Shown in pieces: positions 88 to 32,680 of a DNA stretch of 42,250 bases; position 1 is the stretch's first letter; the number at the start of each line of letters is the position of its first letter. Source of the DNA: Minisyncoccia bacterium (GTDB taxonomy: Bacteria; Patescibacteriota; Minisyncoccia; Phycocordibacterales; UBA918). The position numbers and the translations under genes were made by a program. Location of the stretch: assembly GCA_046598345.1 (NCBI GenBank), contig JBKJIT010000001.1, forward strand, positions 1-42,250, read 5' to 3'. The notes under the pieces were generated by a model, which was not told where the DNA came from, did not search any database, and saw only the letters and a program-made list of their open reading frames with translations.

Positions 88-189
88 TATCTTGGCGTCA
101 GCTCACTAATTCACTTCGTTCATAAGTGGCTCCTGCCCGGTCTCGCGTTTGTGGCATGAGGAATAGCCACAACATCGCTCCGACTCACA
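88..189 (-). repeat. tRNA-linked structured cassette type A, copy 1
   Basis: Minus-strand core GGGCAGGAGCCACTTATGAACGAAGTGAATTAGTGAGCTGACGCC; clearly homologous to 32577-32680, 26304-26400 and 30525-30616. Confidence 0.85.
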
Positions 190-235
190 AACGCAAAACG
201 ACTTGAAGCAGTTCAAGTCGTTTTGTCTTATTGTG
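186..235 (-). terminator. Long hairpin, the probable original 3' flank of tRNA-Arg(GCG)
   Basis: CAAAACGACTTGAA-GCAG-TTCAAGTCGTTTTG inverted repeat with CACAA/TTGTG outer arms. It has the same style as the hairpins directly after the other five tRNAs. Confidence 0.65.
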
Positions 236-406
236 CAGGCGACTTATGGCTTTCAGAACTGTTCCAAAGCAGATACGATATTAGGACTGCAATACAGAGG
301 TTGGACGCGATGTTTGTTTAAAATGACCTACAATTACCTACAATGCTGGCTGGATGGACTCTCTGCAGCTGCAAAAAATACCCCTTAATGTTAGTATATC
401 GTCACA

Positions 407-1504
407 ATGTCTAAGAAAGTGATCTTCAAATTAGCTGAATTGTTTTGCGGACCCGGAGGTCTGTCACTGGGAGCTACCCGGGCAAAACTTAAACACCAGG
501 ACAACATCTATGAGGTGACGCCTATTTGGGCAAATGACATTGATGAGGACACTTGTAATACCTACGCAAGCAATCTTCACGATGGAAATCGGGAAAATGT
601 CATATGTGCTCCTGTGGAAACAATCGACTTTAAAAAAGTCCCCCGTTTTGATGCCCTAGCTTTTGGTTTTCCTTGTAATGATTTTTCTCTCGTAGGTGAG
701 CAGAAAGGTTTTGATGGAAAATTCGGACCCTTATATTCCTACGGTGTGCGAGCCATTGAAGCCCACAGCCCAAAGTGGTTTTTTGCTGAAAATGTAGGGG
801 GTCTACAGAGCGCTAACGGCGGTGAAGCATTTAAACAAATTCTTCGTGATTTAGAAAGCGCTGGTAAGGGTTATGAGATTACTCCCCATCTTTATAAATT
901 TGAAGAATATGGAGTTCCTCAATTGAGACATCGTGTTGTCATTATTGGCATTAGGAAAGATCTTGGATTGAAGTTTAGAGTACCCGCTCCTACAACAAAA
1001 GATAAGTACCTTACTATGCAGGAAATCTTAGAAGATGACCCAATTCCTCTGAATGCAAGAAATCATGAACTTACCAAACAATCTGCAATTGTAGTGGAAA
1101 GGTTGAGTCACATACCGCCAGGTCAAAATGCTTGGTACGAAGGCATACCTTTACACCTACGTTTGAATGTAAAAGGGGCTCGAATGAGTCAGATTTATCG
1201 AAAGCTACATCCTAATAAACCCTCCTACACTCTCACAGGGAGTGGTGGTGGTGGAACGCATGGTTATCATTGGAAGGAAAACCGAGCCCTTACCAATAGA
1301 GAGCGAGCAAGAATCCAAACGTTCCCTGACAGTTTCTTCTTTATGGGTTCTAAAGAAAGCGTTCGCAAGCAAATAGGTATGGCTGTTCCGCCGAAGGGTG
1401 CGCAAGTGATAGTAGAAGCTATTTTGAAGACTTTTGCCCGAAAGAGCTATTCATCTATTGAACAAAAATTCAAACTTGAAGAAATCTTGAGAGAAATCTT
1501 ATAA
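407..1504 (+). CDS. dcm: DNA (cytosine-5) methyltransferase
   Basis: Motif I LFCGPGG, motif IV GFPCNDFS, motif VI ENV, PQxRxR, and C-terminal RERARIQTFPD...IGMAVPP. Confidence 0.96.
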   Translation: MSKKVIFKLAELFCGPGGLSLGATRAKLKHQDNIYEVTPIWANDIDEDTCNTYASNLHDGNRENVICAPVETIDFKKVPRFDALAFGFPCNDFSLVGEQKGFDGKFGPLYSYGVRAIEAHSPKWFFAENVGGLQSANGGEAFKQILRDLESAGKGYEITPHLYKFEEYGVPQLRHRVVIIGIRKDLGLKFRVPAPTTKDKYLTMQEILEDDPIPLNARNHELTKQSAIVVERLSHIPPGQNAWYEGIPLHLRLNVKGARMSQIYRKLHPNKPSYTLTGSGGGGTHGYHWKENRALTNRERARIQTFPDSFFFMGSKESVRKQIGMAVPPKGAQVIVEAILKTFARKSYSSIEQKFKLEEILREIL

Positions 1505-2344
1505 TCGAGCTATTAGTTGTTTCCAAGAGGTTTCCTCTTTATGCATTAGGCCTGAAGGTATTACATACCTGACACCAGTAAACTCCTGTCCGGGAATACT
1601 AGTTACTTCTTTCAGATCCTTTTCTTCACACCATCCTGCAATTTCATACGGAATTTCTTCAAAGCCCGGGATTAGATCTTTATATCTATCAAAGTGTTGA
1701 TGTCCTTCCATAAGTTCCTTTACTTTATCCTTAGAAATCCTAAGCAGATGATCGTCTGGTATGTCTACTCTACAAAATATATATACATCAGATTTTCTTC
1801 CTTCTCTAACATCACCCTCACTTAAAACGAGGTAACTACTCTTAGGCTTTGAGGTTTTGATGCCGACACCAATTCTAGGTGTTCTTCTAACACCTTCGTC
1901 TGTGATAAAAGAAACATCCTGTGCCACAAACTCGTCTCTGATTTCAAAATCTAATTCTATATCGATGTTAAATTTTTCTTTAAGAAACTTCTGAAATGCT
2001 AATTCACCTAATTGCCCTTTCATCCAGTTACTAACTTTTTGCCCAAACTCCCTTTTCCGCCCGGTTCCAAAATCAGAGTTAACGTAATTTTTATAATGCA
2101 TTGCTAATGCAAAATCTAAACAACGAGTATAGTCCTCAAAACTAAGCACCCCTGACCTCCAATTAAAACTTTGTTTCCAAGCTTCTAAGTCACTTATCTT
2201 AAACTTAAAGAATCCTCTATTGCTGGGTCTTAGTAGCGCATTGAATTCCCGAGCATTCTTAAAGTAATTATCAAAGGTTTTAGCGTCTATATTTAAAAAG
2301 GCAATTGCCTGCTTTTTTGCAACAATTTCATCTATAGTTTCCAT
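1499..2344 (-). CDS. Putative restriction endonuclease (PD-(D/E)XK-like) with N-terminal HTH-like region
   Basis: Convergent with the MTase. It has a GQLGE..QD..GIKTSK nuclease-like pattern, and the N-terminal AIAFLNIDAKTFDNY resembles an excisionase-type HTH. Start METIDE lies 7 nt after TATACT. Confidence 0.65.
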   Translation of the reverse strand: METIDEIVAKKQAIAFLNIDAKTFDNYFKNAREFNALLRPSNRGFFKFKISDLEAWKQSFNWRSGVLSFEDYTRCLDFALAMHYKNYVNSDFGTGRKREFGQKVSNWMKGQLGELAFQKFLKEKFNIDIELDFEIRDEFVAQDVSFITDEGVRRTPRIGVGIKTSKPKSSYLVLSEGDVREGRKSDVYIFCRVDIPDDHLLRISKDKVKELMEGHQHFDRYKDLIPGFEEIPYEIAGWCEEKDLKEVTSIPGQEFTGVRYVIPSGLMHKEETSWKQLIARL

Positions 2345-2564
2345 CGTAAATAGTATAGCAGAGCGTTTCACCCAGTTTGTCCTTAGTCACGCTCACCCTT
2401 TTATAGCGTTACTACACCAAGCTTTTTATAGTGTGAACAAATTGATCACGAAATTCCATTCCAAATCCATTGCATTTCTAGATAATTGGTATTTTTCTTG
2501 TACAGCAGACTATCGGAAGGGTAGTAGAAAGTGAGGTTATACCAGGTCTTTTATGCTGAAAATG

Positions 2565-2903
2565 CTAGGTTTTGTAGGGTTCTTCTTTTGATTCAGCTTT
2601 CTCTTTAAGAAAAGAGATGCCATTCTTGTATCCATCTTCTGTAATAGCTTTCATTTCAAAGTGAGTGGGCTTTTTAAAAAGGACGTCACCTTTTTTTTGG
2701 AGATCAGCAACTGTTCTCGCCACCCATTCGTTTACGGCTCTTTCGTTAACTTCTATTCTGTTTAAACCTTGACTCAGATACTCATAAGAGGCACATAGTA
2801 ATACTTCTGTTTTACGATTAGATTGATCTGAAATAAACTCCACTTTAGTCCAGAAACTATCAGTCGAGAAATCTCTATACAACTTACCTGTAATAGTTTG
2901 CAT
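2565..2903 (-). CDS. Hypothetical protein, 112 aa, directly downstream of the DUF3800 gene
   Basis: ATG-started ORF, 9 nt gap to the upstream gene, natural composition. Confidence 0.7.
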   Translation of the reverse strand: MQTITGKLYRDFSTDSFWTKVEFISDQSNRKTEVLLCASYEYLSQGLNRIEVNERAVNEWVARTVADLQKKGDVLFKKPTHFEMKAITEDGYKNGISFLKEKAESKEEPYKT

Positions 2904-2912
2904 GTCTATACA

Positions 2913-3734
2913 TTATACCTGACTAATCAGTCGATTAAACTTTGCTTGTAGATTATTTTTAGCTGTTCGACACCATTCTTGTGAAGTTCTTATGGGATAG
3001 ATATTGAAGCCACTACCAGTTATTTTCATACCTACACCCCTATCGACAGCCCAGAAGTTATTCTTTATTTGGGGTAAAAAATTGTGTCCCATTTCTCTAA
3101 AACTTACGAAAATTGCTCCTAATACCACATCGTTAATTTGATGCAAATAACTATCTTCGTTTTCAACCTGTATTATAGGCAACGCAATTTTTTTTAAAAT
3201 ATATCGACTAGTATCTCTAGTACCTCCATTGGGGAACAGGTCAATGCAATGCAAATCCATATCAGACTTTACAGCATCCCCAAAGCGATCTGCCATGACT
3301 ATGCCGTAATTCTCTCTGCCTAGGTACTGGTCAAATTGATACAGCAAATCGTTTATACCGTACTTATGGGATCGTATCTGTGTCTTGGGGTCTAATGTCA
3401 TCTTAATTTTACCATCTTCTTTTATGGTTCGACTATGATAGAACTGGTGTGGACTCAAACACACAATTAGTTTAGCTCCTGATTCAGAAAACAATGTAAG
3501 TACTTCGTCTTTAACATTACGATGCGTGTCTCCGTCTAAAGTACTTCCTTCCCAGCGTTCGTTATTCCATTTAATTGGTCTAATCTTAGGTAGTCCGTAC
3601 TTCACTTTAATATTTAAAATTCCTTCTGCTAAAGGCTTTGCCTCAGTTTCATCAACCACAATTCCACCATACATAAAAAAACCAATTTTAGTGTCCCAAG
3701 CAAGACTACTTTCATCAGCTATTAGTAGTTTCAT
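2913..3734 (-). CDS. DUF3800 family protein (RNase H-like)
   Basis: N-terminal MKLLIADES...FFMYGG and C-terminal SYLHQINDVV match the DES / Q.AD signature. Start moved to ATG 3734. Confidence 0.75.
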   Translation of the reverse strand: MKLLIADESSLAWDTKIGFFMYGGIVVDETEAKPLAEGILNIKVKYGLPKIRPIKWNNERWEGSTLDGDTHRNVKDEVLTLFSESGAKLIVCLSPHQFYHSRTIKEDGKIKMTLDPKTQIRSHKYGINDLLYQFDQYLGRENYGIVMADRFGDAVKSDMDLHCIDLFPNGGTRDTSRYILKKIALPIIQVENEDSYLHQINDVVLGAIFVSFREMGHNFLPQIKNNFWAVDRGVGMKITGSGFNIYPIRTSQEWCRTAKNNLQAKFNRLISQV

Positions 3735-3937
3735 TGCATTCCATAATATTCCTTTCATCTTCAGAAATCTATAGATGAGCTCAAACTTCCCAAGTTCTCT
3801 CACTGGGAGTAATGGTCTGCAGGTTTTGCAGGTGTCATTTGCTTCAAATTTAAAGTCTTTCACAGCGTCAGCACGTTAGCTACGCGGTCTTTTTACTTTA
3901 AAAATATGTTATTGTAGAAATACAACTGAATATAAAT

Positions 3938-4098
3938 GACCTAACCCTACAGCTCATAAGCCGTAGGTATGGTCGAAAAACGCATTCAACATAGAGAACC
4001 CGTCATTAGGGCGTTGAATGCGTTATAGAGGGAAACTTCTATAGGACCGTAAGGTCTCCTAGTGGCGGGCTTTGTGTTTTAACATAAGCCCCTACTAG
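3938..4098 (+). ncRNA. Candidate structured ncRNA or long leader (five consecutive hairpins)
   Basis: Stems at 3938-3974, 3979-4024 (12 bp perfect), 4024-4043 (GAAA loop), 4045-4056 (GTAA loop) and 4059-4098. Confidence 0.6.
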
Positions 4099-4128
4099 CG
4101 CATTAGCAACAGGGCTTTTATTTTTTAT

Positions 4129-4671
4129 ATGAAACACCTCACAAGAACCCCCCTCATGGTGGCATTTATTGTTCTACTACCCTTAGCCACTTTTGGTGCA
4201 CAAACGATGTTTACTGAGACAAGTGTGCAACGCGCATACCAATCACAGCAGAAGGAAATTGAAACTCAAATTACTTCTAATATGAAGGCTATGGTTCTTC
4301 TCTCAACAAAAGGTAGAGGGTGTTCTTGGTATCCAGAAGTTGGAAAAGCAACCTCAGCAGAAAGAGAAGCTTGCAAGAAATGGGTCGCTTTGGAAGAACA
4401 AAATAATCAGTTGAACGAGGATAAAAGAATTCTTGATGTTGCATACAAACTTCTTGTTGGTTCCTTTAAGGCGGAAGAAAAAGCGAACTTGGAAGAAACG
4501 GAGAAAACCAAAGCAGCACAACAAAAGAAACTAGATGCCATTCAGAAAAATGGATTCTACATTGAATGTAATGTTGATGGTAGTAGCTGTGTGAGATGGG
4601 TAAGCGGGTCGTGTTATCAAGAGCGTAACAAAAATGGCACGTACTCTTCCCTTAGGCAGTGTGGCGGGTAG
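4129..4671 (+). CDS. Secreted hypothetical protein with coiled coil and six Cys
   Basis: Signal peptide MKHL...ATFGA; Cys-rich C-terminus. Confidence 0.75.
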   Translation: MKHLTRTPLMVAFIVLLPLATFGAQTMFTETSVQRAYQSQQKEIETQITSNMKAMVLLSTKGRGCSWYPEVGKATSAEREACKKWVALEEQNNQLNEDKRILDVAYKLLVGSFKAEEKANLEETEKTKAAQQKKLDAIQKNGFYIECNVDGSSCVRWVSGSCYQERNKNGTYSSLRQCGG

Positions 4672-4708
4672 ATCAACGCACCAAGGTTTCATAAATAAAT
4701 GAAATTAT

Positions 4709-5536
4709 ATGGAAAATATTTACCCACTCAAAAAAAGGTCTCCTTCTAATATTTTGGGGTATTTTGAACATCTCCTGCTCGTAGAAGATGAAAATGAGGT
4801 TCTTTGCAATAGCATCAAAAATGAAATGAGTAAGATTGGGTATGAGTTAGTACCTTATTCAGCGGAAAGAGCAGATGCCAAGTCATTCCTTTCAAAAAAG
4901 GCCAGTAAATTTGTGTATCCATACAAAAACAAACAAGCACCACACAGTGATCTATATAATGTCTATGCGAAACTTGGACCCCTTATTCAAGAGGCTTGGC
5001 AGAGGCAATTGAAGACCTTAGAAAAAGATGATAATAAAAATGAAAGCGTTTCTAATGTGATACTCAATGAAAAAGTGGTTCAGAATATACGAAGTAGGTA
5101 TTCTTTAGAAGAGCTCCATAAAATCTACAGTGACCACGATCACGGCTCTGGGAGTATTTTCTCCATGAAAACTTTGACGTTAATCAAGTATGTTTCTTTG
5201 GCTTTAATTATTTTTTCTGTCTTTTTTAATTCTATTTTTTTGTCGATAATAGCTTTTGTTATGGGAACTTACTCTTTTTCACAAACAGCTAAGAATCTAG
5301 CTTATGAGGAAGGTTCATCGGATGGCATTAATGATGGCTATGAATATGGAGAGAATACTACATACCTAAGCTTGTTAGAAAATGACATGAAAGGATCATA
5401 TCTGCATCTTTGGAATCTATTATATGGAGACGGTTACAACAACCGTGAAAATCCAGACGATAAAAATTTTAATGAATTTCTTGATAAGAAAATAAAGGAA
5501 GAGGAGGACACTAAACTAGAACAAAAGGATATTTGA
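4709..5536 (+). CDS. Hypothetical membrane protein
   Basis: 275 aa ORF with a central hydrophobic hairpin (YVSLALIIFSVFFNSIFLSIIAFVMG). Confidence 0.75.
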   Translation: MENIYPLKKRSPSNILGYFEHLLLVEDENEVLCNSIKNEMSKIGYELVPYSAERADAKSFLSKKASKFVYPYKNKQAPHSDLYNVYAKLGPLIQEAWQRQLKTLEKDDNKNESVSNVILNEKVVQNIRSRYSLEELHKIYSDHDHGSGSIFSMKTLTLIKYVSLALIIFSVFFNSIFLSIIAFVMGTYSFSQTAKNLAYEEGSSDGINDGYEYGENTTYLSLLENDMKGSYLHLWNLLYGDGYNNRENPDDKNFNEFLDKKIKEEEDTKLEQKDI

Positions 5537-5715
5537 AATCGGCTAATTTCTCAAAACATTGTGCGATAGTGGTGTCGAGTGAAGGTAACTGAAGGCCCGG
5601 GGACTGTGAAATCTGCCTATTAAAGCCTATCTTTCCAACTATACTCGCATGCACTGTAAGCATGGGGCGACGACTCAAAAACAAGTTCTCAATGTTTGTT
5701 TTGTGACCAAATAAC

Positions 5716-5752
5716 AGGTTATGACAAGGTTTTACGAGGTTCTTCATAGGGA
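5716..5752. promoter_or_regulatory. Helically phased AGGTT repeats
   Basis: AGGTT at 5716, 5727 and 5737, and AGGGA at 5748. Confidence 0.4.
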
Positions 5753-6001
5753 TCATACCTACAATAACCTGCAATTTTGGAGGTTCATATCAGTCTTGTT
5801 TTTCAACCATCTCAGGTTTTTTAGGGCTTTAAGGTTTGATCGGCTACCAATTCAGCTCAGAAACAAGTCATGTCACCTTATTGAGTAAAGGCTTATATAT
5901 TTGGCTACTTTAGGCATATAAATGCGATACGGCTTGGTTTTGGACTCCCGGAGTACGTAGATTAAGCTAAGTAAAGCTAGGTTGTTGTTTAAGATTGAAA
6001 A

Positions 6002-6685
6002 ATGTATGATTTTACTATGAAACCTGGTCAGAAGAATAAAAAAGACGCTCATCTAGTACTCGACATGATTGAGCACTACCAGAAGCGTAACACCACAGAG
6101 GGTGTTACAACTATTTCTGGAACTCAAGATTTCGATCTGGATTTTGATACATTTGACGCAGTTGTCCGTGATTTGCAAACCTTTTTTAAAGATGAGATTG
6201 AAATAGTAAATATTTATGATTCCATAAATGAGGAGCATTGGTTGAATCCTCCTATGCGTGGATACCCTGAGCATCGTCCTGTTGCAGAATTGCGTATCAA
6301 AGGACCAGTTGGCAAACTTCGATCTCTTGTTGAATCAGAATATAAGAGTTTGGTTAGCAATAAAATTGAAATCATCATCGACAAAAAGCATGGTCTTTAT
6401 ATGAAATCGCATCCAGATAGATCGTATGAACTTCAGCACAAAACTAAAAATGTAGTAACAAAAAGATATCGGTTGATTGAGAAATTGATCAAAGCAAAAA
6501 GGATCGTTAGTGGTCCCAAGCTCCGGGGGGAGTTGGGTTATGAAACAATCTCTCTGGTGGGCCAGGAGATAAAGAAAATTAATAACGGTTGTCGTGAAAA
6601 GGCGGGTTTGTTTGACGATCTAATAAGCCATCAAAATACAGGTGGTTATGAAATAAATTCTCGTTACAGCATTTCATTAAAGTAA
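6002..6685 (+). CDS. Putative regulator with C-terminal winged helix (OmpR/ToxR-like)
   Basis: C-terminal LIEKL...VSGPKLRGELG...IKKIN...LISHQNTGGYEIN pattern; lies upstream of the primase. Confidence 0.6.
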   Translation: MYDFTMKPGQKNKKDAHLVLDMIEHYQKRNTTEGVTTISGTQDFDLDFDTFDAVVRDLQTFFKDEIEIVNIYDSINEEHWLNPPMRGYPEHRPVAELRIKGPVGKLRSLVESEYKSLVSNKIEIIIDKKHGLYMKSHPDRSYELQHKTKNVVTKRYRLIEKLIKAKRIVSGPKLRGELGYETISLVGQEIKKINNGCREKAGLFDDLISHQNTGGYEINSRYSISLK

Positions 6686-6710
6686 CCTTCTCGTAACCTC
6701 TAGATAACCT
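6683..6710. promoter_or_regulatory. Three TAACCT direct repeats at 11 bp spacing
   Basis: TAACCT at 6683, 6694 and 6705; inverted AGGTTA at 6770. Confidence 0.5.
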
Positions 6711-6848
6711 GTGCATTAGTTTTAAAAACCCATTTATATATGGGCTTTTTTAGTGTCTTTTAAGTTACGAGGTTATGTGACGCTATTGATCAAAATTCGA
6801 GATGATAGTTCTATCACCGAATAATAAATCCCGGTGACTTAAAAAACT

Positions 6849-23530: not shown

Positions 23531-23563
23531 GGGGCTTAGTCACAAGACTTGGCCCCTTTTCTT

Positions 23564-24704: not shown

Positions 24705-25903
24705 GTCATTACTGCTGCTGGCTTAACGAGTGGAGACATATTCGTAAGATTGTTTACAATCTTCGGGAACACAGCCAAAAAATAATCTAATTCTTCCGTA
24801 GTTGTATATCGACCAATTGAAATACGCAGACTACCATGTATAAGGTCTCCATCTTGCCCTATAGCAGAAAGCACATGAGATGGCTTCAAATCAAAAGCAG
24901 AACATGCTGATCCTGTCGAAACACACACACCTTCATGGTCTAACATAAGAAGCATCGATTCTCCTTCAATGTGAGGTACGGTGATATGGGTAACTGAGGG
25001 CACTAAAAATTTTTTGCTTCCATTGATAAGAAGCTGGGGAATTCTTTTTTGTAATTCTTCTCGTAAGTAGAGAGTAAGACCTTGTAGTCGTATATATTCG
25101 CTTGCCCTCTTTTCTTCAGCAATCTGAAGCGCGTACGCAAACCCAGCAATTAAAGGAACACTCTCAGTTCCTGCGCGCAGATTACTTTCTTGGCCCCCAC
25201 CTACAATAAGTGGAGCAAGTTTGATTCCTTTCTTTTTGTATAACATTCCAACACCATTTGGTCCGTACACCTTTGAACTGTTGAGCGTGAGGAGATCAAC
25301 ACTTAGATCAGTAACATTCACTGGAAGTAGCGTGATAGCCTGACATGCATCGGTGTGGAGGATCGGCAGGCTGTCTGTTTTTAGCGCTTTCAACTTTGAT
25401 GCAAGTTCAGCAACTGGTTGTATCGTACCAAGCTCATTATTTACGAGCATGATTGAAATGAGGATTGTTTCTTTTGTAATTAATTTCAAACATTTTTCCA
25501 CATCAAGAAGTCCCTGAGGGGTAACTGGGGCAATACTCACCTCAAACCCTTCTTTTGAAAGGGCGTGGGCTACCTCTATTATTGATTTATGCTCAATGTC
25601 TGAAATGATAATGTGTCTACCTTTATGCTTATACGCCCTGGCAGCACCAAAAATTGCTAAATTGTTAGCTTCAGTGCCAGAACCAGTAAAAGTAATTTCC
25701 CCTCTATTTGCTCCAATAATAGAAGCTATGGTGTCTCTTGCGCCCTCAATAACTTGTCTAGAGCGTCTACCCCGAATGTGAAGTGAAGATGGATTACCAT
25801 AAGGCGCTGAAAAAAAAGGCATCATAAATGATGTAACGGTTTCATCTATTGGAGTACTTGCGGCGTAATCAAGATATATTTCTTTAGAGCTGACTTTTTG
25901 CAT
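24701..25903 (-). CDS. iscS: Cysteine desulfurase IscS/NifS
   Basis: YLDYAASTP, GNPSS.H, HTDACQ, PLP Lys in SSKVYGP, STGSACS. Confidence 0.95.
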   Translation of the reverse strand: MQKVSSKEIYLDYAASTPIDETVTSFMMPFFSAPYGNPSSLHIRGRRSRQVIEGARDTIASIIGANRGEITFTGSGTEANNLAIFGAARAYKHKGRHIIISDIEHKSIIEVAHALSKEGFEVSIAPVTPQGLLDVEKCLKLITKETILISIMLVNNELGTIQPVAELASKLKALKTDSLPILHTDACQAITLLPVNVTDLSVDLLTLNSSKVYGPNGVGMLYKKKGIKLAPLIVGGGQESNLRAGTESVPLIAGFAYALQIAEEKRASEYIRLQGLTLYLREELQKRIPQLLINGSKKFLVPSVTHITVPHIEGESMLLMLDHEGVCVSTGSACSAFDLKPSHVLSAIGQDGDLIHGSLRISIGRYTTTEELDYFLAVFPKIVNNLTNMSPLVKPAAVMT

Positions 25904-25981
25904 TGTGCATCGTATTATAACAATTTCCGCTTTTAATTCTATAAAAAACTCCGCCAGTAGCGGAGTTGAGGGGCTTAAAGT

Positions 25982-26236
25982 CTAGGAATTTGCTATTATA
26001 CTAGTGAGCAACATGAGGAATGTGCATGGAAGTAAGGTGTAGGAATGGAAAAATTGCTCATCATTTTTTCCTCCCAAATTTGATTTTCGTTTGGTTAAGA
26101 GATACAGGCAGATAATGATTGTTACCCCTAATACAACTATAAAAGGGAAAGACATACCTACAAAAATAGCCAACAGGTAGAAAGGAAGAACAAAAATAAC
26201 TAACATTACCAACTCCTGTGTTCGGAACTTACTCAA
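25982..26236 (-). CDS. Small membrane protein
   Basis: 84 aa hydrophobic ORF, TTG start. Confidence 0.45.
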   Translation of the reverse strand: MSKFRTQELVMLVIFVLPFYLLAIFVGMSFPFIVVLGVTIIICLYLLTKRKSNLGGKNDEQFFHSYTLLPCTFLMLLTSIIANS

Positions 26237-26285
26237 TATAATACTCTATTACAGTTTTTGCTAGGATCTCGTGCTAGCACGACTT

Positions 26286-26415
26286 GGCGGAGGAGAGAAG
26301 ATTCGGCGTCAAGAAGTAATTCGCGTACGCTCATAACTTCTTCCTGCCCTCGGTTTGCTGGCTCGTTTCATTATGAATAGAAACTTACATCGCAAACCGT
26401 TCTCATCTCGCTCGC
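26286..26415 (-). repeat. tRNA-Ser-linked module: antisense T-arm, cassette A copy 2, degenerate tRNA 3' end with CCA
   Basis: Minus strand: GAGCGAGATGAGAAC (antisense T-arm) ... GGGCAGGAAGAAGTTATGAGCGTACGCGAATTACTTCTTGACGCC ... GAATCTTCTCTCCTCCGCCA. Confidence 0.8.
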
Positions 26416-26460
26416 AATAAATAAAACTGTCTGGGAAAAATCCAGACAGTTTTATTCAAG

Positions 26461-26547
26461 CGGAGGGAGCGAGATTCGAACTCGCGAGAGACTTTCGCCC
26501 CTAACAGTTTTCAAGACTGCCGCCTTCAACCACTCAGCCATCCCTCC
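26461..26547 (-). tRNA. tRNA-Ser(TGA)
   Basis: GGAGGGA acceptor, GCAGT-CTTGAAA-ACTGT anticodon arm, long variable arm, GTTCGAATC. Confidence 0.95.
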
Positions 26548-26615
26548 GTATAATTTGAATGCCCAACGATACTACCAGAAAACACAACCAAATCCAATGT
26601 GGTATGCTGTTTTCC

Positions 26616-26993
26616 ATGCGACTCATGGGTATTGATTACGGTTCGAAGCGCGTCGGTATTGCGCTCACCGACGACAAGGGAATGATGGCTTTTCCGCATG
26701 CGGTTCTTCCAAATACGCCAGAACTCGTGCGAGAACTCGAAAAACTGATTGCTGCGCAGCAGGTAGGAAAGATTGTCATCGGACATTCGCTTGACCGGGA
26801 GGGAAATGCAAACAAAATTCATGCGGAAGTAGAGGGACTTATGCTTGATCTCACCCTTGCAGTGGGTGTCCCGATTGAGCTTGAGCCAGAGCAATACACG
26901 ACGCAAGAGGCGAAGCAGATTCAAGGGAAGACGAGCATGACGGACGCCTCTGCCGCAGCCATTATATTAAATAGTTATTTGAGTAAGCAGTAA
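26616..26993 (+). CDS. ruvX: YqgF/RuvX pre-16S rRNA nuclease
   Basis: MRLMGIDYGSKRVGIA, E.YTT.EA, DASAAAIIL. Confidence 0.93.
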   Translation: MRLMGIDYGSKRVGIALTDDKGMMAFPHAVLPNTPELVRELEKLIAAQQVGKIVIGHSLDREGNANKIHAEVEGLMLDLTLAVGVPIELEPEQYTTQEAKQIQGKTSMTDASAAAIILNSYLSKQ

Positions 26994-27000
26994 ATAGGCC

Positions 27001-27327
27001 ATGATAGAGCACGATGATTTTTCAAAGGTAGAGATGCGGATTGGTGAGATCCTTTCTGTAGAAATAGTTCAAGGTGCCGATAAACTTCTCAAGCTCTCAG
27101 TTGATTTGGGCGAAGAACGGCCACGCCAAATCATCTCGGGTATTCGCGAATACTTTGAAGACCCACAAACGCTCGTGGGAAGACAGTGCCCCTTTGTAAC
27201 AAACCTTGCCCCAAGAGTCATTCGAGGGCTTGAAAGTGAGGGCATGATTCTAGCGGGAAGCCACGAGACAATCCTTGCTCTCCTTCATCCGCATCAACAC
27301 GTACCGAATGGCACGAAACTCAGGTAG
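27001..27327 (+). CDS. Stand-alone tRNA-binding OB domain (MetRS C-terminal/Trbp111-like)
   Basis: DFSKVEMRIG, ADKLLKL.VDLG, NLAPR..RG.ESEGM. Confidence 0.9.
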   Translation: MIEHDDFSKVEMRIGEILSVEIVQGADKLLKLSVDLGEERPRQIISGIREYFEDPQTLVGRQCPFVTNLAPRVIRGLESEGMILAGSHETILALLHPHQHVPNGTKLR

Positions 27328-27390
27328 TCTTTTAACAGACATACGCACATTTTTTTATGGAACCCCGTATAATGAGGGTATCATTTACAT

Positions 27391-28491
27391 ATGGGCGTTC
27401 TTTCGACATTACAACACATTTCCCCGCCACCTCGGTACATGTCATTTCCGAGTGTCGGAGTTGATATTTCAGACACTTCCCTCAAGTATGTGCAATTTGA
27501 ACGAAAGCACTCGCACGACAAGGAGCTTTCCCTTAAGGAGTGGGGAGATTTGAGCATACAAGAGGGAAGTCTCGAGCGGGGTAATGTGAAAGATATTGAA
27601 CCGCTCGTAACGGCGCTGAAAGACGTTAAGAAGAAATGTGACGCTGAGTACGTGCGTATCTCACTTCCCGAAGAACGCGCGTATCTCTTTGAGACAACGA
27701 TAAAACACGGCACGCCGACCAAAGAGGTACGCGAGCAAATTGAGTTCAAACTTGAGGAGAACGTACCGCTCTCCCCTCAGGATGCATATTTTGATTACCA
27801 CGTAGTAGGACTCGAACGGGAAACTGGAGATTTTCGCACTGCGGTAGCGGTGTATTCAAGGGAGACGATTGATGCCTATACGGAAGCTTGCATGCGTGCC
27901 AAAGTAATTCCGCTTTCGTTTGAGATTGAGGCTGAGGCAATTGCACGAGCATCGATATCTAAGAATCTCACTGGCACATTCATGATCGTTGATTTTGGAA
28001 AGTCGCGTACGGGAGTTGGCATTGTGCACAATGGGTCTCTCATGTACACCTCAACCATTGAGGTGAGCGGGCAGGGAATGAGCACCGCGCTTCGCGGTGT
28101 CGTAGGAGAAATTCCTGAATCCGAGCTCACCATCATAAAAAATACGAAGGGGCTCCACAATACCCCAGAAGACGCCAAAATCTACAAAGTCTTTAAGGAC
28201 TCAATTCAAGCACTTGCTGATGAGCTCGATATTCGCATCCAGTACTGGAATAGTCGCGATATTGAGGATGAGAACCATGGAATAAGTCGCGTGATTCTTT
28301 GCGGTGGAAGCGTCAATTTACTTGGTCTTCCTGAATACCTAAGCGATGCCCTGAAGATTTCTACTGAGCGCGCACAAGTGTGGCAAAACGCGTTTTCTCT
28401 CGAGCATTTCATTCCTCCGATTACGGAACGGTATTCGTATGGATATGCGACTGCTATTGGACTCGCACTTTCAGGATACACGCACATATGA
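27391..28491 (+). CDS. pilM: Type IV pilus assembly protein PilM
   Basis: GVDISDTSLK, VDFGKSRT, LCGG, ATAIGLAL actin-like fold. Confidence 0.9.
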   Translation: MGVLSTLQHISPPPRYMSFPSVGVDISDTSLKYVQFERKHSHDKELSLKEWGDLSIQEGSLERGNVKDIEPLVTALKDVKKKCDAEYVRISLPEERAYLFETTIKHGTPTKEVREQIEFKLEENVPLSPQDAYFDYHVVGLERETGDFRTAVAVYSRETIDAYTEACMRAKVIPLSFEIEAEAIARASISKNLTGTFMIVDFGKSRTGVGIVHNGSLMYTSTIEVSGQGMSTALRGVVGEIPESELTIIKNTKGLHNTPEDAKIYKVFKDSIQALADELDIRIQYWNSRDIEDENHGISRVILCGGSVNLLGLPEYLSDALKISTERAQVWQNAFSLEHFIPPITERYSYGYATAIGLALSGYTHI

Positions 28492-29048
28492 TGAATTTAC
28501 TTTCTCCACAAGCAGAAAAGACACTCACGCGCGAATATTGGGTGCGCGTCATTTCGGTATGGGCATTTCTGCTCTCCGGTGCGTGCTTAACGCTTGCGCT
28601 CCTTCTCATCCCCACCTATGTACTCATTCACACACAATTGAGTGTCATCACTAAAGGAATGAGCGAGAGCAGTGAAAAGCAGAAAGAAACAGAGGAGCGA
28701 TTTGCACGCGCTGAAGGGAGTATTCGCGAGGCAAACGAACTCGCCGCTGCCCTCAGGGCGCCTCTTATGAATACGGCGTACTCAGACCTGTATGAAGCTA
28801 TTGCTGAAGCAGGAACAAAAAGTCAGATCAACCTCAAAACATTTATCATGCGCCAAGCAGTGGATGCGTCTACGAAAAACGTAGAGGTGCAAGGAGAAGC
28901 ACGCACACGCACCGAACTCATTTCTTTCAAAACAGAAATCGAACGCTCACCGTATTTTGAAGATGCAGCAATACCGATTTCTGATTTGGCACGAGAAACT
29001 GACCTTCCATTCGTTATGACCATTACCCTTTCACCAACAAACGAATAA
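28488..29048 (+). CDS. PilN-like protein
   Basis: Starts MNLL, one TM helix, coiled coil; follows pilM. Confidence 0.75.
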   Translation: MMNLLSPQAEKTLTREYWVRVISVWAFLLSGACLTLALLLIPTYVLIHTQLSVITKGMSESSEKQKETEERFARAEGSIREANELAAALRAPLMNTAYSDLYEAIAEAGTKSQINLKTFIMRQAVDASTKNVEVQGEARTRTELISFKTEIERSPYFEDAAIPISDLARETDLPFVMTITLSPTNE

Positions 29049-29049
29049 C

Positions 29050-29577
29050 ATGATGCACCGCCGTACAAAAATTATTGCGAGTGTTGCCGGAATTCTCTGC
29101 GGATTAAGTGTGCTCCTTCTCCTTGGATTTGAATACACGTTAAGCGGTAAAAAAGCTGCTCTTCTCAGTGAACAGGAGAAAATATGGGTAGCAAAGCAAA
29201 AAGCAACTCGCCTCTCTTCGCTTGAAAAACTCGCGGCTGAAACTGTAACAGAACGAGAGTCCCTTAAAGAATTCATTCTCACTGACGAAGAAGTGGTGGA
29301 CTTTCTCTCGCTTATCGAGACAATTGCAAAAGAGCAGGGTGTATCAATTAAAACAGGCTCACTTGAGGTGGTGCCACAAAGTGATTTGTTCGAAGAACTT
29401 AAAATGACGCTCGTTGTTGAAGGGTACCGTGCGGGTGTTGTTCATGCGCTTCGTCTTTTTGAGGCGCTCCCGTACCGGGTGTCAGTTGAAAGTGTGGCGC
29501 TCGTACGCAGTGAAGGGATGGAGGCGTGGCAAGGGACGTTTGATTTGAGGGTAACAAAATATAAAAAGAAACCATGA
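29050..29577 (+). CDS. PilO-like protein
   Basis: N-terminal TM helix, coiled coil, G.Y....AL..FE.LPY; operon position. Confidence 0.7.
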   Translation: MMHRRTKIIASVAGILCGLSVLLLLGFEYTLSGKKAALLSEQEKIWVAKQKATRLSSLEKLAAETVTERESLKEFILTDEEVVDFLSLIETIAKEQGVSIKTGSLEVVPQSDLFEELKMTLVVEGYRAGVVHALRLFEALPYRVSVESVALVRSEGMEAWQGTFDLRVTKYKKKP

Positions 29578-29942
29578 GCACTGACATTCGCACACTCTTT
29601 AAAAAGAAACTGAAGCATGAAGCAACCCCACGGGAAAGGGAGATCATTCGTTCCGACCGGGACTGGATGTTTGGCTTAGGTGTAATGGTGATCGTGTTTG
29701 CGTGTGGTGCGGCATATGTTGGATATGATTTTTACAAATACCTTCGATTCGATGTGGAAATAAATAGTGGAAGCGAAGAGGGGATCGTCTATCGAGACAA
29801 GGATGTACGTTTCGTTTTAGAAAAATATAGCGAAAAGGCAAAATTATTTAAGGCGCTACGGGAAAATCGAAGCTATGTCCCACCACCCGTGGTTGTAGAG
29901 GAATTACCTGAACCTCTTGCGGGAGAAGAGGTGTCCGAGTAG
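29574..29942 (+). CDS. Single-pass membrane protein of the pil operon
   Basis: ATGA overlap with the previous gene; one TM helix. Confidence 0.7.
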   Translation: MSTDIRTLFKKKLKHEATPREREIIRSDRDWMFGLGVMVIVFACGAAYVGYDFYKYLRFDVEINSGSEEGIVYRDKDVRFVLEKYSEKAKLFKALRENRSYVPPPVVVEELPEPLAGEEVSE

Positions 29943-29958
29943 AGTGGTGATGCCGAAC

Positions 29959-30216
29959 GCCCCGATAGTTAAAGAGATAATGAAACATACTGGGAGTATG
30001 TTTCATCGGACTTCTAAGCCGTTATGAGAGGCTGAAACAGTTTGGGAAACTGTTTTAGGAGGTTGCCAGATATTTTCTCAGAAATATCGACAACCTGTAC
30101 TGAACTTGTAAAGTTGAACAGTTTGGGAAACTGTTTCAGAAGGTTGTCGATATTTGAGGTCACGATAAATATCATACAACCTGAACAGCGTCTGTAGGAC
30201 GAGATTCCTAATCGAA
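29959..30216 (+). pseudogene. Fragmented copy of tRNA-Arg(TCT) interrupted by hairpin cassettes
   Basis: GCCCCGATAGTTAAA (29959-29973), CGGACTTCTAAGCCGTTAT (30007-30025) and GATTCCTAATCG (~30203-30214) match the intact tRNA in order. Confidence 0.75.
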
Positions 30217-30242
30217 CCGAGATACATTACAATTGTCCAAAT

Positions 30243-30314
30243 GCCCCGATAGTTAAATGGATATAACTGCGGACTTCTAAGCCGTTATTCTAGGTTCGAT
30301 TCCTGGTCGGGGCA
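30243..30314 (+). tRNA. tRNA-Arg(TCT)
   Basis: GCCCCGA/TCGGGGC acceptor, CTTCTAA loop, GGTTCGATTCC. Confidence 0.94.
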
Positions 30315-30362
30315 CATAATGACAAAGGCTCAACTTCACTGTTGAGCCTTTGTCATTAGGTT

Positions 30363-30440
30363 CCAGGAATCGAAGACCTTGAGCAATTGCTGCGAAAGGT
30401 GTACTGAACATGTAATGTTCGATTCCTGGTCGGGGCACCA
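30363..30440 (+). repeat. tRNA-Arg-linked module: antisense T-arm, cassette B, duplicated 3' end with CCA
   Basis: CCAGGAATCGAA-GACCTT...AAGGT-GTACT-GAACA-TGTAA-TGTTC-GATTCCTGGTCGGGGCACCA. Confidence 0.85.
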
Positions 30441-30524
30441 AGACCAAACAAAAATCTATCAGCTTAAAGCTGATAGATTTTTGTTTGAGAAAGTAAATAA
30501 TTTTACTTGCGTGTCTTGGTGCTC

Positions 30525-30616
30525 GTCGGAGACATGTTTCGCTATTTCTAATGTAAAACAGTCGAGACCGGGGAGGAAGTTCTTAAGAGCGTAGTGATTT
30601 AGAAACTTGACCCCGC
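30525..30616 (+). repeat. tRNA-linked cassette A copy 3
   Basis: GGGGAGGAAGTTCTTAAGAGCGTAGTGATTTAGAAACTTGACCCC, with compensatory changes relative to the other copies. Confidence 0.75.
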
Positions 30617-30712
30617 AAAATGCATTCTGATCTTGAGACGTTATCGAGATTTTTCTAAAGAAAATATTCTACACTTGAACCATTTATGTAAGCTTCAATT
30701 GGTGCATTACTT

Positions 30713-31555
30713 CTACTCCCGAATTCTCACGGAAAACGCAGGATCGTCGACATGCAAAAACGCACGTTCGTTAATGTGGTATTTTTCGCGAGCTTCGGGG
30801 AACGTGAGGTCTGTATCGATGAGTCCAAGTTCGTACGCGAGTGCATCAGAGTTTTCAGGGAGGAGTATGCGGAGACTTAAAAATGGAATCCTGTGCGGCG
30901 TAATGGTATTTACGTGCTCAACGATATTTGTCGTACAGGTATTCGTGAGCGTGTTGTAAAACTCGGGAGTGTCTCGGAGCGTATTAGCCCTTGTGAGCAT
31001 ATCGACAAAAAGTGCTGCCGCTTTATCTTTTGAAGCGCGCATGGGGTAGAGGTACACAGGATCTTTTCGGTGGTTAGCTCTTAGTGTAATGAGGTCACGC
31101 TCGTCTCCAATCACATACATGAGCTCATACGCATTAAAAAGCCCTTTCAGCGGGTGATACGTTTCTCCTTTTTCCTTTCGGATCTCGACAGAAATGGCTA
31201 GGAATTCATTGCCTTCGAATTCAAAACTGAGGAACGTGTGGGCGGAGCCGGGCACTCCAGAAAATGGCTCAACCACATACCACACTCGCTTGATTTGATT
31301 AAGGTCGAATGTTTTGTCGTAGTAATTTTCTACGTAACTTGTTGTTGAGGCGTAGGTAAAGTTCCGAATGTTATGCACGGTGACGAGGTTGCCCTCAAAT
31401 TCAGCGTACGGCAATACTTGCTGGTCTCTGTTCCAGTCCCGATCATTTGAAGGAGTGGTGCGGAGTGAAACGATGAGAAAAAGTATGCCCATCACTAGGA
31501 CAATTCCTGTAATTCCATACAAAACCCATTTGAGAACGGAGAGTGCTCGGTGCAT
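30713..31555 (-). CDS. DUF4105 (Lnb N-terminal-like) membrane-anchored protein
   Basis: N-terminal TM helix, PSNDRDW, AHTFLSF, SVEIRKE, FYNTLTNTCTTN. Confidence 0.85.
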   Translation of the reverse strand: MHRALSVLKWVLYGITGIVLVMGILFLIVSLRTTPSNDRDWNRDQQVLPYAEFEGNLVTVHNIRNFTYASTTSYVENYYDKTFDLNQIKRVWYVVEPFSGVPGSAHTFLSFEFEGNEFLAISVEIRKEKGETYHPLKGLFNAYELMYVIGDERDLITLRANHRKDPVYLYPMRASKDKAAALFVDMLTRANTLRDTPEFYNTLTNTCTTNIVEHVNTITPHRIPFLSLRILLPENSDALAYELGLIDTDLTFPEAREKYHINERAFLHVDDPAFSVRIRE

Positions 31556-31593
31556 CCATGTAGTGTAGCAAATTCCTACGCTATACTGTGGGA

Positions 31594-32205
31594 ATGCAGA
31601 AGATCATCTTACTGTGTGTCACCGGACTTCTCCTTATACTTTTTACGTATTTCTTTTTTCGGCCAATGCACATCACTAACTACCCACCAAAGGAAGGCCC
31701 GATTGTCGCATTCGGAGATAGCCTCGTTGAGGGTGTCGGGGCTGGGGAATCAGAAAATTTTGTGTCGCTCCTTTCCCTCAAAATTGGAGAGCCCATCGTC
31801 AACATGGGCGTCTCTGGAAATACGACGCGCGATGGGCTCGCGCGTATTGAGAAAGTAATCGCTCTAAAACCTCGCATTGTGATAGTGCTCCTTGGTGGTA
31901 ACGATGCACTTCGGAGAATTCCTCAGGAAGAAACATTTCAGAATTTGCGTAGCATAATTGCCCGCTTGCAGGGAGAGGGGAGTGTCGTGGTACTTCTCGG
32001 TATTCGGGGTGGCATAATTATTGACGGGTATGATACTCAATTCAAAGCACTTGCCGAGGAAACAGGGTCGGTGTACGTCGAAGATGTACTCTCCGGAATT
32101 TTTGGGAAAAATGAACTCATGGCAGATAGATTGCACCCCAATAAAGAGGGGTATAAAATCATTGCTGATCGCGTGTATGAGGAGATGATTGATATCGTTG
32201 AGTAA
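31594..32205 (+). CDS. SGNH/GDSL arylesterase
   Basis: FGDSL, GVSGNTT, LGGND, DRLHPN. Confidence 0.92.
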   Translation: MQKIILLCVTGLLLILFTYFFFRPMHITNYPPKEGPIVAFGDSLVEGVGAGESENFVSLLSLKIGEPIVNMGVSGNTTRDGLARIEKVIALKPRIVIVLLGGNDALRRIPQEETFQNLRSIIARLQGEGSVVVLLGIRGGIIIDGYDTQFKALAEETGSVYVEDVLSGIFGKNELMADRLHPNKEGYKIIADRVYEEMIDIVE

Positions 32206-32239
32206 CATATTGTAAGAAAAATCAGGCCGCTCTACTTAG

Positions 32240-32334
32240 TGGGCGATGAGGGACTTGAAACTTACAGTTTCAGTTCAGGTTGTATGACAATTTTAGTAAA
32301 TAAAAATTGTCGACAACCTTTTCAAATCCCTGAC
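32240..32334 (-). repeat. tRNA-Val-linked module: antisense T-arm, cassette B, duplicated 3' end
   Basis: Minus strand: AGGGATTTGAA-A-AGGTTG...CAACCT-GAACT-GAAAC-TGTAA-GTTTC-AAGTCCCTCATCGCCCA. Confidence 0.82.
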
Positions 32335-32382
32335 CAAAATACAAAAAACCACCAGAATAGATCTGGCAGTTTTTTGCATTTG

Positions 32383-32455
32383 TGGGCGATGAGGGATTCG
32401 AACCCCCGACCTTCTCAGTGTAAATGAGCTGCTCTACCAACTGAGCTAATCGCCC
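32383..32455 (-). tRNA. tRNA-Val(TAC)
   Basis: GGGCGAT acceptor, TTTACAC loop, GGTTCGAATCC. Confidence 0.95.
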
Positions 32456-32576
32456 GTATGTGCCTGTGTCAGCTTTTCCTTATTTCGAATCTTGGGGAGT
32501 AGCTCGTTTCCAAGTGTAAATGGTTCGACAGTTCCCCAAACTGTCTCACCTCCATCACCAGAGCGTATCGCCCATG

Positions 32577-32680
32577 TATCTCGGCGTCAGGTCACTAATT
32601 CGCCTACGCTCATAAGTGCCTCCTGCCCGGCCTCACGGTTTCGCCATTAAGGTGCAGGCGAAACATCGCTCCGGCTCACA
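32577..32680 (-). repeat. tRNA-linked cassette A copy 4 (upstream of tRNA-Val)
   Basis: Highly similar to 88-189; core GGGCAGGAGGCACTTATGAGCGTAGGCGAATTAGTGACCTGACGCC. Confidence 0.85.

Follow-up and report, generated by a model that had tools for sequence, protein, structure and literature searches.

What kind of element recurs in this genome, often next to tRNA genes, and how did it come to be there? The question was raised by the window (the whole 42,250-nt stretch of DNA analysed here), in which the same structured core lies at 183..94 (-), 26399..26305 (-), 30526..30614 (+), and 32674..32583 (-). These positions fall within the ranges given by the original prediction, which described a four-copy element on the strand of the neighbouring tRNA and suggested either an ncRNA or ribozyme of tRNA processing or a single-stranded DNA (ssDNA) element. 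All four copies were present, and the core motif and compensatory stem changes quoted for them were confirmed in our alignments. The count of four was correct for the window but not for the 0.94-Mb genome, in which we found 31 covariance-model matches, 4 of them the window copies. The strand was shared with a neighbouring tRNA in three of the four copies, but copy 1 had no tRNA nearby.

Fold and distribution of the core

The core of the four window copies was ~90 nt long and Y-shaped, with a 3' hairpin domain preceded by a 5' hairpin domain; this 5' domain, whose loop is conserved, was absent from the original prediction. When 12 copies were aligned with MAFFT and scored against a hand-drawn structure, 85.8% of cells were paired, compared with 69.9% after shuffling (0 of 500 shuffles as high) and 27-50% when the structure was slid along the alignment; 20 of the 27 pairs had changed on both sides. 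In an alignment of 47 copies, which was fitted to the covariance model and is biased towards it, pairing was 94.2% versus 71.5%, with both-sided changes at 24 of 27 pairs. The predicted covarying fold was thus borne out in both alignments. The 47 copies further defined a three-way junction with invariant unpaired bases and, in the 3' hairpin, a conserved bulged A and a U-U mismatch. A covariance-model search of the whole window against the Rfam 15 families, as the original prediction had proposed, returned only LOOT and 6 tRNAs at gathering thresholds; no family reached its gathering score on any copy, and relaxed E-values of 1-400 gave no relevant match. A recognisable ribozyme core was not seen in the element, as predicted, and our search found no published description of the family. 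These results supported a conserved, covarying fold that lies outside the catalogued RNA families.

The fold belonged to the sense strand of the adjoining gene. The sense strand was more stable than the antisense strand in 38 of 40 copies with RNA parameters and in 37 of 40 with DNA parameters. Wobble pairs were asymmetric in the model-fitted alignment (48 G-U versus 15 A-C) and less so (21 versus 12) in the MAFFT alignment, which was not fitted to the model.

The family was present in 32 of 41 related genomes, with copy numbers from 0 to 29 among the 41 relatives. In this genome, the nearest upstream feature was on the same strand for 23 of 29 copies, a tRNA in 12 of those 23, and the core was also found at the 3' ends of protein genes. 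Copies were dispersed, with tandems of 2-3 at most. More than 20 different target sequences were occupied per genome, ORF ends and one tRNA 5' end included. No near-identical copies were seen at different loci of the genome, so recent jumping was not supported. The 31 copies were divided 14 to 17 between the replication strands; this lack of a lagging-template or replication-strand bias differs from ssDNA elements of the IS200/IS605 type.

Unit layout and duplicated gene ends

The usual order of parts was a gene 3' end (X), an intrinsic-terminator hairpin, an antisense copy of X, the core, and a second sense copy of the gene end (X'). We read this layout at tRNA-Tyr, -Met, -Glu, -Val, -Ser, and -Phe and at several ORF ends, the inserted unit being ~170-200 bp. 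By our own scoring, adjacent arms of at least 5 bp occurred in 12 of 31 copies and clear X/X' direct repeats in 8 of 31. The duplication length ranged from ~12 to 33 nt, and at tRNA-Tyr, -Glu, -Met, and -Ser the direct repeats were 19-26 nt long and identical or nearly identical. In every tRNA case read with a T-loop junction, X' began at position 55/56. The features of the window were the following:

94..183 (-): copy 1 core, Y-shaped (model R1, 101.9 bits); locus-specific arms not detectable
194..225 (-): terminator-like hairpin with T-run directly 5' of copy 1; stem of at least 9, ending 15 nt before the core
26460..26547 (-): tRNA-Ser(TGA); X starts at T-loop C56 and covers the final 19 nt (26478..26460)
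26421..26455 (-): intrinsic-terminator-like hairpin between X and the antisense copy; the empty sites in G002 and G001 lack it
26400..26415 (-): 5' arm, a degenerate antisense of the tRNA-Ser T-loop and T-stem 3' strand (read by sequence)
26305..26399 (-): copy 2 core, in which the 5' domain is a variant closed by a longer stem; 3' half 35.2 bits
26286..26305 (-): X', where the 3' end of tRNA-Ser recurs in sense orientation, with native flank after it; 5 of 19 positions differ from X
30243..30315 (+): tRNA-Arg(TCT), by tRNA detection
30316..30443 (+): a different core, core B, arranged likewise (antisense copy of the T-arm, then core B, then a second tRNA-Arg 3' end at 30421-30443)
30445..30487 (+): terminator-like hairpin 5' of copy 3 (sequence and terminator rule)
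30490..30522 (+): extra small hairpin (30490-30508) and partial antisense tRNA-Arg 3' end (30513-30522), read by sequence
30526..30614 (+): copy 3 core, 87.3 bits
32583..32674 (-): copy 4 core, 97.3 bits
32677..32725 (-): long hairpin without T-run, 5' of copy 4; fails the terminator-like rule
32726..32738 (-): X of copy 4, a promoter -10-like box and the first 5 nt of a tRNA-Val-like gene; direct repeat with 32580..32569
32569..32580 (-): X' of copy 4 (direct repeat), running into a decayed tRNA-Val duplicate
32382..32455 (-): tRNA-Val(TAC), 3' of copy 4, by tRNA detection

The complement of the copy 2 antisense arm fitted X (T-stem CTCGC) and not X'; window copies 1 and 4 had no recognisable antisense arm. 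At every complete copy, two alternative pairings were possible for this arm.

A terminator-like hairpin, called by our own rule, lay within 90 nt 5' of the core in 25 of 31 copies, compared with 47 of 1000 random 90-mers, and no conserved promoter was seen for the element. By supplying a spare gene end together with a terminator, the unit leaves the invaded gene whole and still able to terminate. At least copy 4 and the copy at C3:87435 occupied transcribed positions with no terminator before the core, a setting in which the core may act as RNA.

Where X and X' differed, the changes were of a particular kind. At the ORF ends C3:87435, C4:3734, C4:134586, and C3:72904, all 12 of 12 nucleotide differences counted by eye were synonymous and the stop codon was kept, and tRNA X' copies with acceptor and T-stem variants matched functional alleles in other species. 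Judged from sequence, the two gene ends look like alleles from different species. Presence and absence at one site was read directly at tRNA-Ser(TGA): among 14 congeners with a readable locus, 5 carried this core, 3 another core at the same place, 5 were empty, and 1 held a bare palindrome. Where G002 and G001 have empty sites, tRNA-Ser runs directly into the flank that follows X' in the window, and core B of the window tRNA-Arg was also found after tRNA-Ser in G012, G009, and G013. A counterpart of copy 4 upstream of tRNA-Val was absent in 9 relatives.

Known systems and candidate enzymes

Integration sites in tRNA genes are classed by sublocation, the T-loop among them. Elements integrated in the tRNA T-loop, and their gene-less derivatives (CIMEs), duplicate the tRNA 3' part on both sides with a T-loop junction, so that the tRNA is rebuilt by the incoming copy. 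The same was found here: tRNA 3' repeats bracket the insert, the tRNA is restored, and congeners have empty sites. However, the insert is only ~170-200 bp and has no integrase, more than 20 targets each have matching arms (protein-gene ends and one tRNA 5' end included), and an antisense target copy and a conserved folded core are added. A single cognate integrase with one attP/attB specificity was rejected, as the genome has one tyrosine recombinase gene (PF00589) for more than 20 target sequences. A MITE was rejected as well: the arms are locus-specific target copies and not family-wide TIRs, and the duplication length is not fixed. TIGR-Tas guide arrays were also set aside, as a Nop domain was not detected in the genome at E values up to 1, and the copies did not form regular arrays.

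Integron attC sites and CTX phage attP(+) are strand-specific imperfect hairpins with bulged bases in which structure is kept over sequence, and the strand-specific imperfect hairpin was equally found here (38 of 40 copies). These sites recombine as folded ssDNA, a mechanism that we used as an analogy only. By that analogy, a stem imitating the duplex target would explain the antisense copy, and insertion of one strand would yield the observed order of parts. In contrast to attC and CTX attP, the element here lacks both an IntI-type integrase and an attI or dif target, the genome having only the one tyrosine recombinase gene, and its stem is locus-specific.

No mobilising enzyme was identified in the genome, and no reverse transcriptase was found in it. 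Three RAYT-like Y1_Tnp genes with HUH and Tyr motifs were present, each bracketed (3 of 3) by its own 17-25-nt palindromes in inverted orientation, unlike the core. Y1 genes occurred in 26 of 32 element-bearing and 4 of 9 element-free genomes, a comparison to which no statistic was applied because the genomes are related; of the six element-bearing genomes without a detected Y1 gene, three were 97-100% complete. NTS/SRM repeats, in the available text of PMC11893778, are multi-copy oriented hairpins around genes with a GCG..GC apex that act as ssDNA, have links to natural transformation, and are cut by the small GIY-YIG nucleases called Ssn. This genome, too, has a small GIY-YIG gene (89 aa), as do 29 of 32 element-bearing versus 6 of 9 element-free genomes. 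However, the core differs from NTS/SRM in sequence and size and was absent from the flanks of that gene. On these counts, neither type of gene clearly follows the element from relative to relative.

Proposed spread of the unit and rival explanations

We consider it somewhat probable (roughly 55%) that the family is a gene-less, gene-end-restoring insertion element that acts as folded ssDNA and spreads by recombination. The unit would comprise a spare sense X, an intrinsic terminator hairpin, an antisense X, and the ~90-nt Y-shaped core, placed before the displaced original gene end X'. The core would work as folded ssDNA rather than as a transcript, probably forming a stable hairpin module that resists nucleases and that host machinery recognises; analogues of such a folded substrate are found in integron attC sites, CTX phage attP, and single-strand origins. 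Recombination within the conserved gene, perhaps following uptake of DNA, would carry copies from one related species to another, and the gene body and X' would provide the homology arms. This route covers the spread of a unit between species at the same gene, and not the origin of more than 20 target-matched arms.

The tRNA-processing ncRNA or ribozyme of the original prediction did not survive the finding of the same core at protein-gene 3' ends, its position 3' of a terminator-like hairpin in most copies, and its presence or absence at the same tRNA in sister species. A broader RNA reading is that the core forms a structured, cis-acting RNA that serves the host as part of read-through or leader transcripts. 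It could take part in 3'-end processing, mark where an RNase enters or stops, or act as a switch whose antisense arm pairs either with X (longer terminator) or with X' (closed core). Strong covariation, invariant loops, a fold on the transcribed strand, an orientation that follows the gene and not replication, and the alternative pairings of the arm would all suit such an RNA, as would copy 4 in the tRNA-Val leader and the C3:87435 copy in a 3' UTR ahead of the real terminator. We nevertheless regard it as doubtful: the hairpin before 25 of 31 cores belongs to the unit itself, a conserved promoter is missing, the same tRNA has this core, no core, or another core in sister species, and duplicated gene ends would be unexpected for a regulatory RNA. 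The ssDNA alternative of the original prediction fits better with the strand-specific fold, the apex described below, and the target duplication, although sequence cannot by itself decide between DNA and RNA. Far less credible is an RNA that excises itself, as a self-cleaving ribozyme or in the manner of an intron, and rejoins the gene to X'. It would account for the kept frame and stop codon, the purely synonymous differences, and the junction with its invariant unpaired bases, but no Rfam ribozyme or intron family matched, neither junction has a conserved candidate cleavage site, a terminator precedes most cores, and donor and recipient alleles explain the synonymous pattern more simply.

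Among DNA readings, the core could be a signal for single-strand initiation or protection, comparable to the sso of rolling-circle plasmids or to ssi/primase sites in ssDNA phages, and would aid the survival and copying of an incoming or displaced strand. The literal motif GCGNAGC/GCGNNAGC occurred at the apex of 23 of 46 copies, compared with 2.15 in shuffles; in the accessible part of PMC13037366 it is the "mini-hairpin DNA" of ssDNA replication starts, occurring at G4/St-1 primase sites and ssiA. The apex TAGCGA is one letter off the ssoA CS-6 box TAGCGT, as that box is given in the available portion of PMC4598088. A 21-nt apex is common to unrelated multi-hairpin repeats of Alpha- and Betaproteobacteria, as expected if it touches conserved host machinery, and the fold is strand-specific, as in ssoA origins, which are orientation-specific ssDNA folds of ~100-200 nt with a conserved apical box. 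However, the element is chromosomal and multi-copy, with no rolling-circle Rep gene, dso, or plasmid context; the ssoA RSB box had no match in it, the CS-6-like apex agrees at only 5/6 positions, lagging-template bias is lacking, and the likeness is one of short motifs. We hold this signal to be improbable; it is compatible with the recombining insertion element as a sub-mechanism. Quite improbable are REP/REPIN-type repeats mobilised in trans by RAYT-like Y1 (HUH) transposases. Like REP, BIME, and REPIN repeats, the copies are abundant intergenic hairpins near gene ends, and their strand-specific fold, the RAYT-like genes, and the occurrence of Y1 genes in most element-bearing genomes would agree with this reading. 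Against this stand the palindromes around each Y1 gene, the element-bearing genomes without Y1 and element-free genomes with it, and the REPs themselves, which have a fixed sequence of 20-40 nt and no target duplication; the core is three times longer, Y-shaped, and target-duplicating.

A bolder form of the insertion element, which we consider unlikely, is a protein-free, self-addressed "knock-in cassette" that would travel as ssDNA, for example during natural transformation, and need only host RecA and replication functions. Its sense and antisense gene-end copies may fold as a duplex target mimic and double as homology arms, the mini-hairpin-tipped Y core could shield the strand and bring in host functions for priming or recombination, and the arms might be re-templated at each new target, for example by palindrome correction. 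If host functions alone move the unit, it would be a minimal model of selfish DNA that targets conserved genes across species boundaries, and would also be a natural template for inserting DNA at chosen sites without a marker. A streamlined, ultra-small bacterial genome nonetheless keeps ~30 copies of this 170-200-bp unit, and essential genes are invaded without harm because a spare gene end and a terminator arrive with it. For annotation, many "broken tRNA" fragments and unusual hairpins between genes in such genomes can be put down to this family. The mini-hairpin apex is also common to repeats in cultivable Sphingomonas and Acidovorax, which offer an experimentally tractable entry.

The covarying core and its distribution

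The four copies in the window belong to a large family of insertion elements that restore gene ends and carry a strand-specific, Y-shaped core of ~90 nt. All four places were read, and the motif quoted in the original prediction was present in each, on the strand given there. The sequences of the four copies indicated that the conserved unit extends beyond the core first proposed and is tripartite: a short closing stem, a 5' hairpin with a nearly invariant loop of ~12 nt, and the long 3' hairpin already recognized, with a U-U mismatch, a bulged A, tandem G-A/A-G and a 3-4-nt apex.

Core positions in the window, from the alignment
183..94, minus strand: core of copy 1
26399..26305, minus strand: core of copy 2
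30526..30614, plus strand: core of copy 3
32674..32583, minus strand: core of copy 4

The predicted covarying, conserved fold was borne out in 12 copies aligned with MAFFT and scored on a hand-drawn structure, in which 85.8% of cells were paired compared with 69.9% in shuffles, and 20 of 27 pairs had changed on both sides. When partners were slid in the same 12 copies, pairing fell to 27-50%. The 3' hairpin was recovered independently by RNAalifold from 20 copies, with 16 of 17 pairs compensated. Model-aligned copies (n = 47) gave 94.2% vs. 71.5% pairing and both-side changes at 24 of 27 pairs, on an alignment that was fitted to the model and leans towards it. Covariance models of Rfam matched none of the copies. 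The earlier interpretation, a new RNA or ribozyme or a single-stranded DNA element, was partly right: a conserved covarying fold without an Rfam family stood, and a hammerhead core, like kink-turn and box C/D cores, did not fit the order of motifs as judged by eye. Other readings of the core were also set aside. No covariation was seen by eye for a pseudoknot of the conserved 5' loop with either the AGGAGG stretch or the AUUAG strand, tiny open reading frames beginning in the apex had no conserved ATG, and TTGAC at the 3' end of the core, read as a -35 box, was followed by no -10 box at a fixed spacing (by eye).

The element had been described as four-copy, a count that applied to the window only. 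In its own genome (943,514 bp), nhmmer found 22 and then 29 copies, and the covariance model of the core found 31 across the whole genome, some in tandems of two or three. Matches occurred in 32 of 41 relatives (own genome included). The share was 19 of 20 among congeners, 23 of 24 within the family and 8 of 16 in the order's other families, and the number of matches in a genome ranged from 0 to 29. When the phylum was sampled evenly, under stricter filters, one of 150 other genomes matched, and it was of the same order. Public genomes were also scanned for exact matches to the 21-nt apex, and at least 120 stretches were found; among the 80 loci returned, 21 had full-length model matches of at least 40 bits, all in records titled Saccharibacteria, Paceibacteria/Parcubacteria, Nomurabacteria, Yonathbacteria, Kaiserbacteria, "Patescibacteria group" and "bacterium". 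The distribution of the core within ultra-small bacteria is therefore patchy.

Layout around the core and gene-end alleles

The nearest upstream feature lay on the same strand in 23 of 29 copies and was a tRNA in 12. The recurrent flank order was X (the sense 3' end of a gene), a GC-rich hairpin with a T-run, antisense X, the core, and X', which repeats the sense sequence; together, X, the hairpin and antisense X formed one long palindrome with the hairpin loop at its center. In the copies at tRNA-Tyr, -Glu, -Met, -Ser, -Val and -Phe, the antisense arm was the reverse complement of the T-loop and T-stem 3' strand, not a copy of the T-stem 5' strand, and X' started at T-loop position 55/56. Protein-gene ends had the same layout, with the last codons and the stop in X. 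By simple scoring, adjacent arms of at least 5 bp were present in 12 of 31 copies and a clear X/X' repeat in 8 of 31; the remaining copies, without scored arms or repeats, were decayed or within tandem arrays. Three such arrays of 2-3 cores (C3:278444-278734, C3:158484-158716 and C4:179085-179295, on contigs of the own genome) lay downstream of tRNA-Phe and another tRNA, their cores separated by only 5-7-nt sense and antisense arm stubs.

Within the window, where ordinary housekeeping genes adjoin the four copies, copy 2 was a full example of the layout, at tRNA-Ser(TGA). Copy 3 came after a second, unrelated core, core B, which filled the same kind of slot behind tRNA-Arg, and copy 1 had the terminator as its only unit part besides the core. 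Copy 4 was unusual, as its 12-13-nt repeat consisted of a -10 box and the five initial bases of a decayed duplicate of tRNA-Val, and no T-run accompanied its hairpin.

Further features in the window
3938-4057, plus strand: LOOT RNA (RF03000), full length, 79.7 bits vs. a gathering score of 46.4
30316-30443, plus strand: core B, after tRNA-Arg(TCT), as antisense T-arm copy, core and second tRNA 3' end
About 32456-32500: core remnant with heavy deletions, immediately 5' of the real tRNA-Val
32480-32573, minus strand: decayed tRNA-Val duplicate, 5' part, with anticodon-loop-like TTTACAC

The decayed tRNA-Val duplicate was also seen in one relative (G002, 74% identity). Because core B also follows tRNA-Ser in three relatives (G012, G009 and G013), one insertion layout is common to several core families. 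Between the terminator and the antisense arm there was an optional third hairpin, its loop conserved (CAAACUGCUUUG), at C3:14599, 192077, 193503 and 295399 of the own genome and at loci L035 and L050, and more weakly at window positions 30490-30508.

The tRNA-Ser(TGA) locus was compared across the genus in 14 relatives with readable downstream DNA. The slot held this core in five, core B in three and a bare palindrome in one, and was empty in five. In two empty genomes, tRNA-Ser was followed directly by the sequence found behind X' in the window, and therefore the terminator, antisense arm and core are extra DNA at tRNA-Ser, leaving X' and its flank as the old gene end. One relative carried the whole unit twice in tandem at this locus. 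Behind tRNA-Ser at L036 (genome G003), a perfect palindrome of T-loop/T-stem-like sequence and its complement had no core between, possibly the footprint of a lost unit. At tRNA-Val, the core was downstream in four of nine relatives and upstream in none of the nine, and two relatives had only a short promoter-leader at the place of copy 4. For window positions 25900-32900, assembled contigs that probably come from the source sample showed a joint at none of the copies.

X and X' differed at 12 nucleotides over four reading-frame ends, read by eye; all 12 differences were synonymous, and the stop codon was kept.

Nucleotide differences between X and X' at four reading-frame ends of the own genome
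C3:87435: 4
C4:3734: 4
C4:134586: 3
C3:72904: 1 (putative small reading frame)

At tRNA-Ser in the window, X' was unlike X at 5 of 19 positions; its acceptor strand was that of functional tRNA-Ser in other congeners, and the antisense arm matched X. The X' copies at tRNA-Val in two relatives likewise resembled alleles of other species. Random decay would not yield this pattern. Because X and X' differ as alleles do, we infer that recombination inside the conserved gene brought in at least one arm from another lineage.

Candidate enzymes and routes of spread

The own genome carries a single tyrosine recombinase gene, one small and one large GIY-YIG gene, and three paralogous RAYT-like Y1 (HUH) genes; no reverse transcriptase (RVT_1) and no Nop-domain (Nop/Tas) protein was found in it.

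RAYT-like Y1 genes, all outside the window
C3:178913-179551
C2:84326-84994
C4:334517-335185

On both sides, each Y1 gene had inverted copies of a GC-rich palindrome of its own (17-25 nt). This arrangement is REPtron-like, and the core was not among the flanks of any of the three. One of these palindromes also occurred next to the tRNA-Glu copies of the element.

Candidate genes in 41 genomes
Y1/RAYT-like gene: 26 of 32 element-bearing, 4 of 9 element-free
Small GIY-YIG gene: 29 of 32 element-bearing, 6 of 9 element-free

The Y1 genes are improbable movers, given their own, different flanking palindromes; across these related genomes their co-occurrence with the element was imperfect. The small GIY-YIG gene was rejected, as it had no core in its flanks and did not co-occur. 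No dedicated enzyme emerges among the candidates examined. The same gene in another species could be reached without one, since homology arms can be provided by the gene body to the left and X' to the right. Template switching within the palindrome might, as a guess, supply the arms that match more than 20 different targets.

Strand preference and known systems

In a comparison that needs no alignment, the sense strand gave a more stable fold than the complementary strand in 38 of 40 copies under RNA parameters (means of -29.4 vs. -24.6 kcal/mol) and in 37 of 40 under DNA parameters. Wobble pairs numbered 48 and A-C 15 on the fitted alignment; the corresponding counts on the unfitted one were 21 and 12. 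By a rule of our own, a terminator-like hairpin lay within 90 nt upstream of 25 of 31 cores, compared with 4.7% of random 90-mers; judged from these sequences, most cores would be shielded from host-gene transcription by the unit's own terminator. Among 46 distinct copies, 23 had an apex that was literally GCGNAGC or GCGNNAGC, compared with an expectation of 2.15. A 2026 review describes this motif as "mini-hairpin DNA", extraordinarily stable and nuclease-resistant, and places it at ssDNA-phage primase sites and at ssiA (PMC13037366). The strand, terminator and apex evidence together favor, without proving, a single-stranded DNA role of the core. No replication-strand (lagging-template) bias was found in copy orientation (14 vs. 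17), which argues against an IS200/IS605-like dependence on the lagging-strand template.

The closest known systems were tRNA-integrating elements with their gene-less derivatives, folded ssDNA recombination sites (attC, CTX attP), REP/RAYT, NTS/SRM-Ssn hairpins (PMC11893778) and ssoA origins (PMC4598088); as far as the defining features were compared, the element does not fully share those of any of them. TIGR-Tas arrays (PMC12045711) did not fit. The family is apparently undescribed so far, as literature searches turned up no description.

The 21-nt apex hairpin, with covarying flanking stems, was also seen inside a different multi-hairpin, multi-copy repeat of other bacteria, which matched no Rfam family and was unannotated on three Sphingomonadaceae plasmids. 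Its loci include L058, L060, L066, L094, L096, L106, L114 and others, and its hosts are Sphingomonas, Novosphingobium, Blastomonas, Parasphingorhabdus, Bauldia, Rhizomicrobium and Acidovorax.
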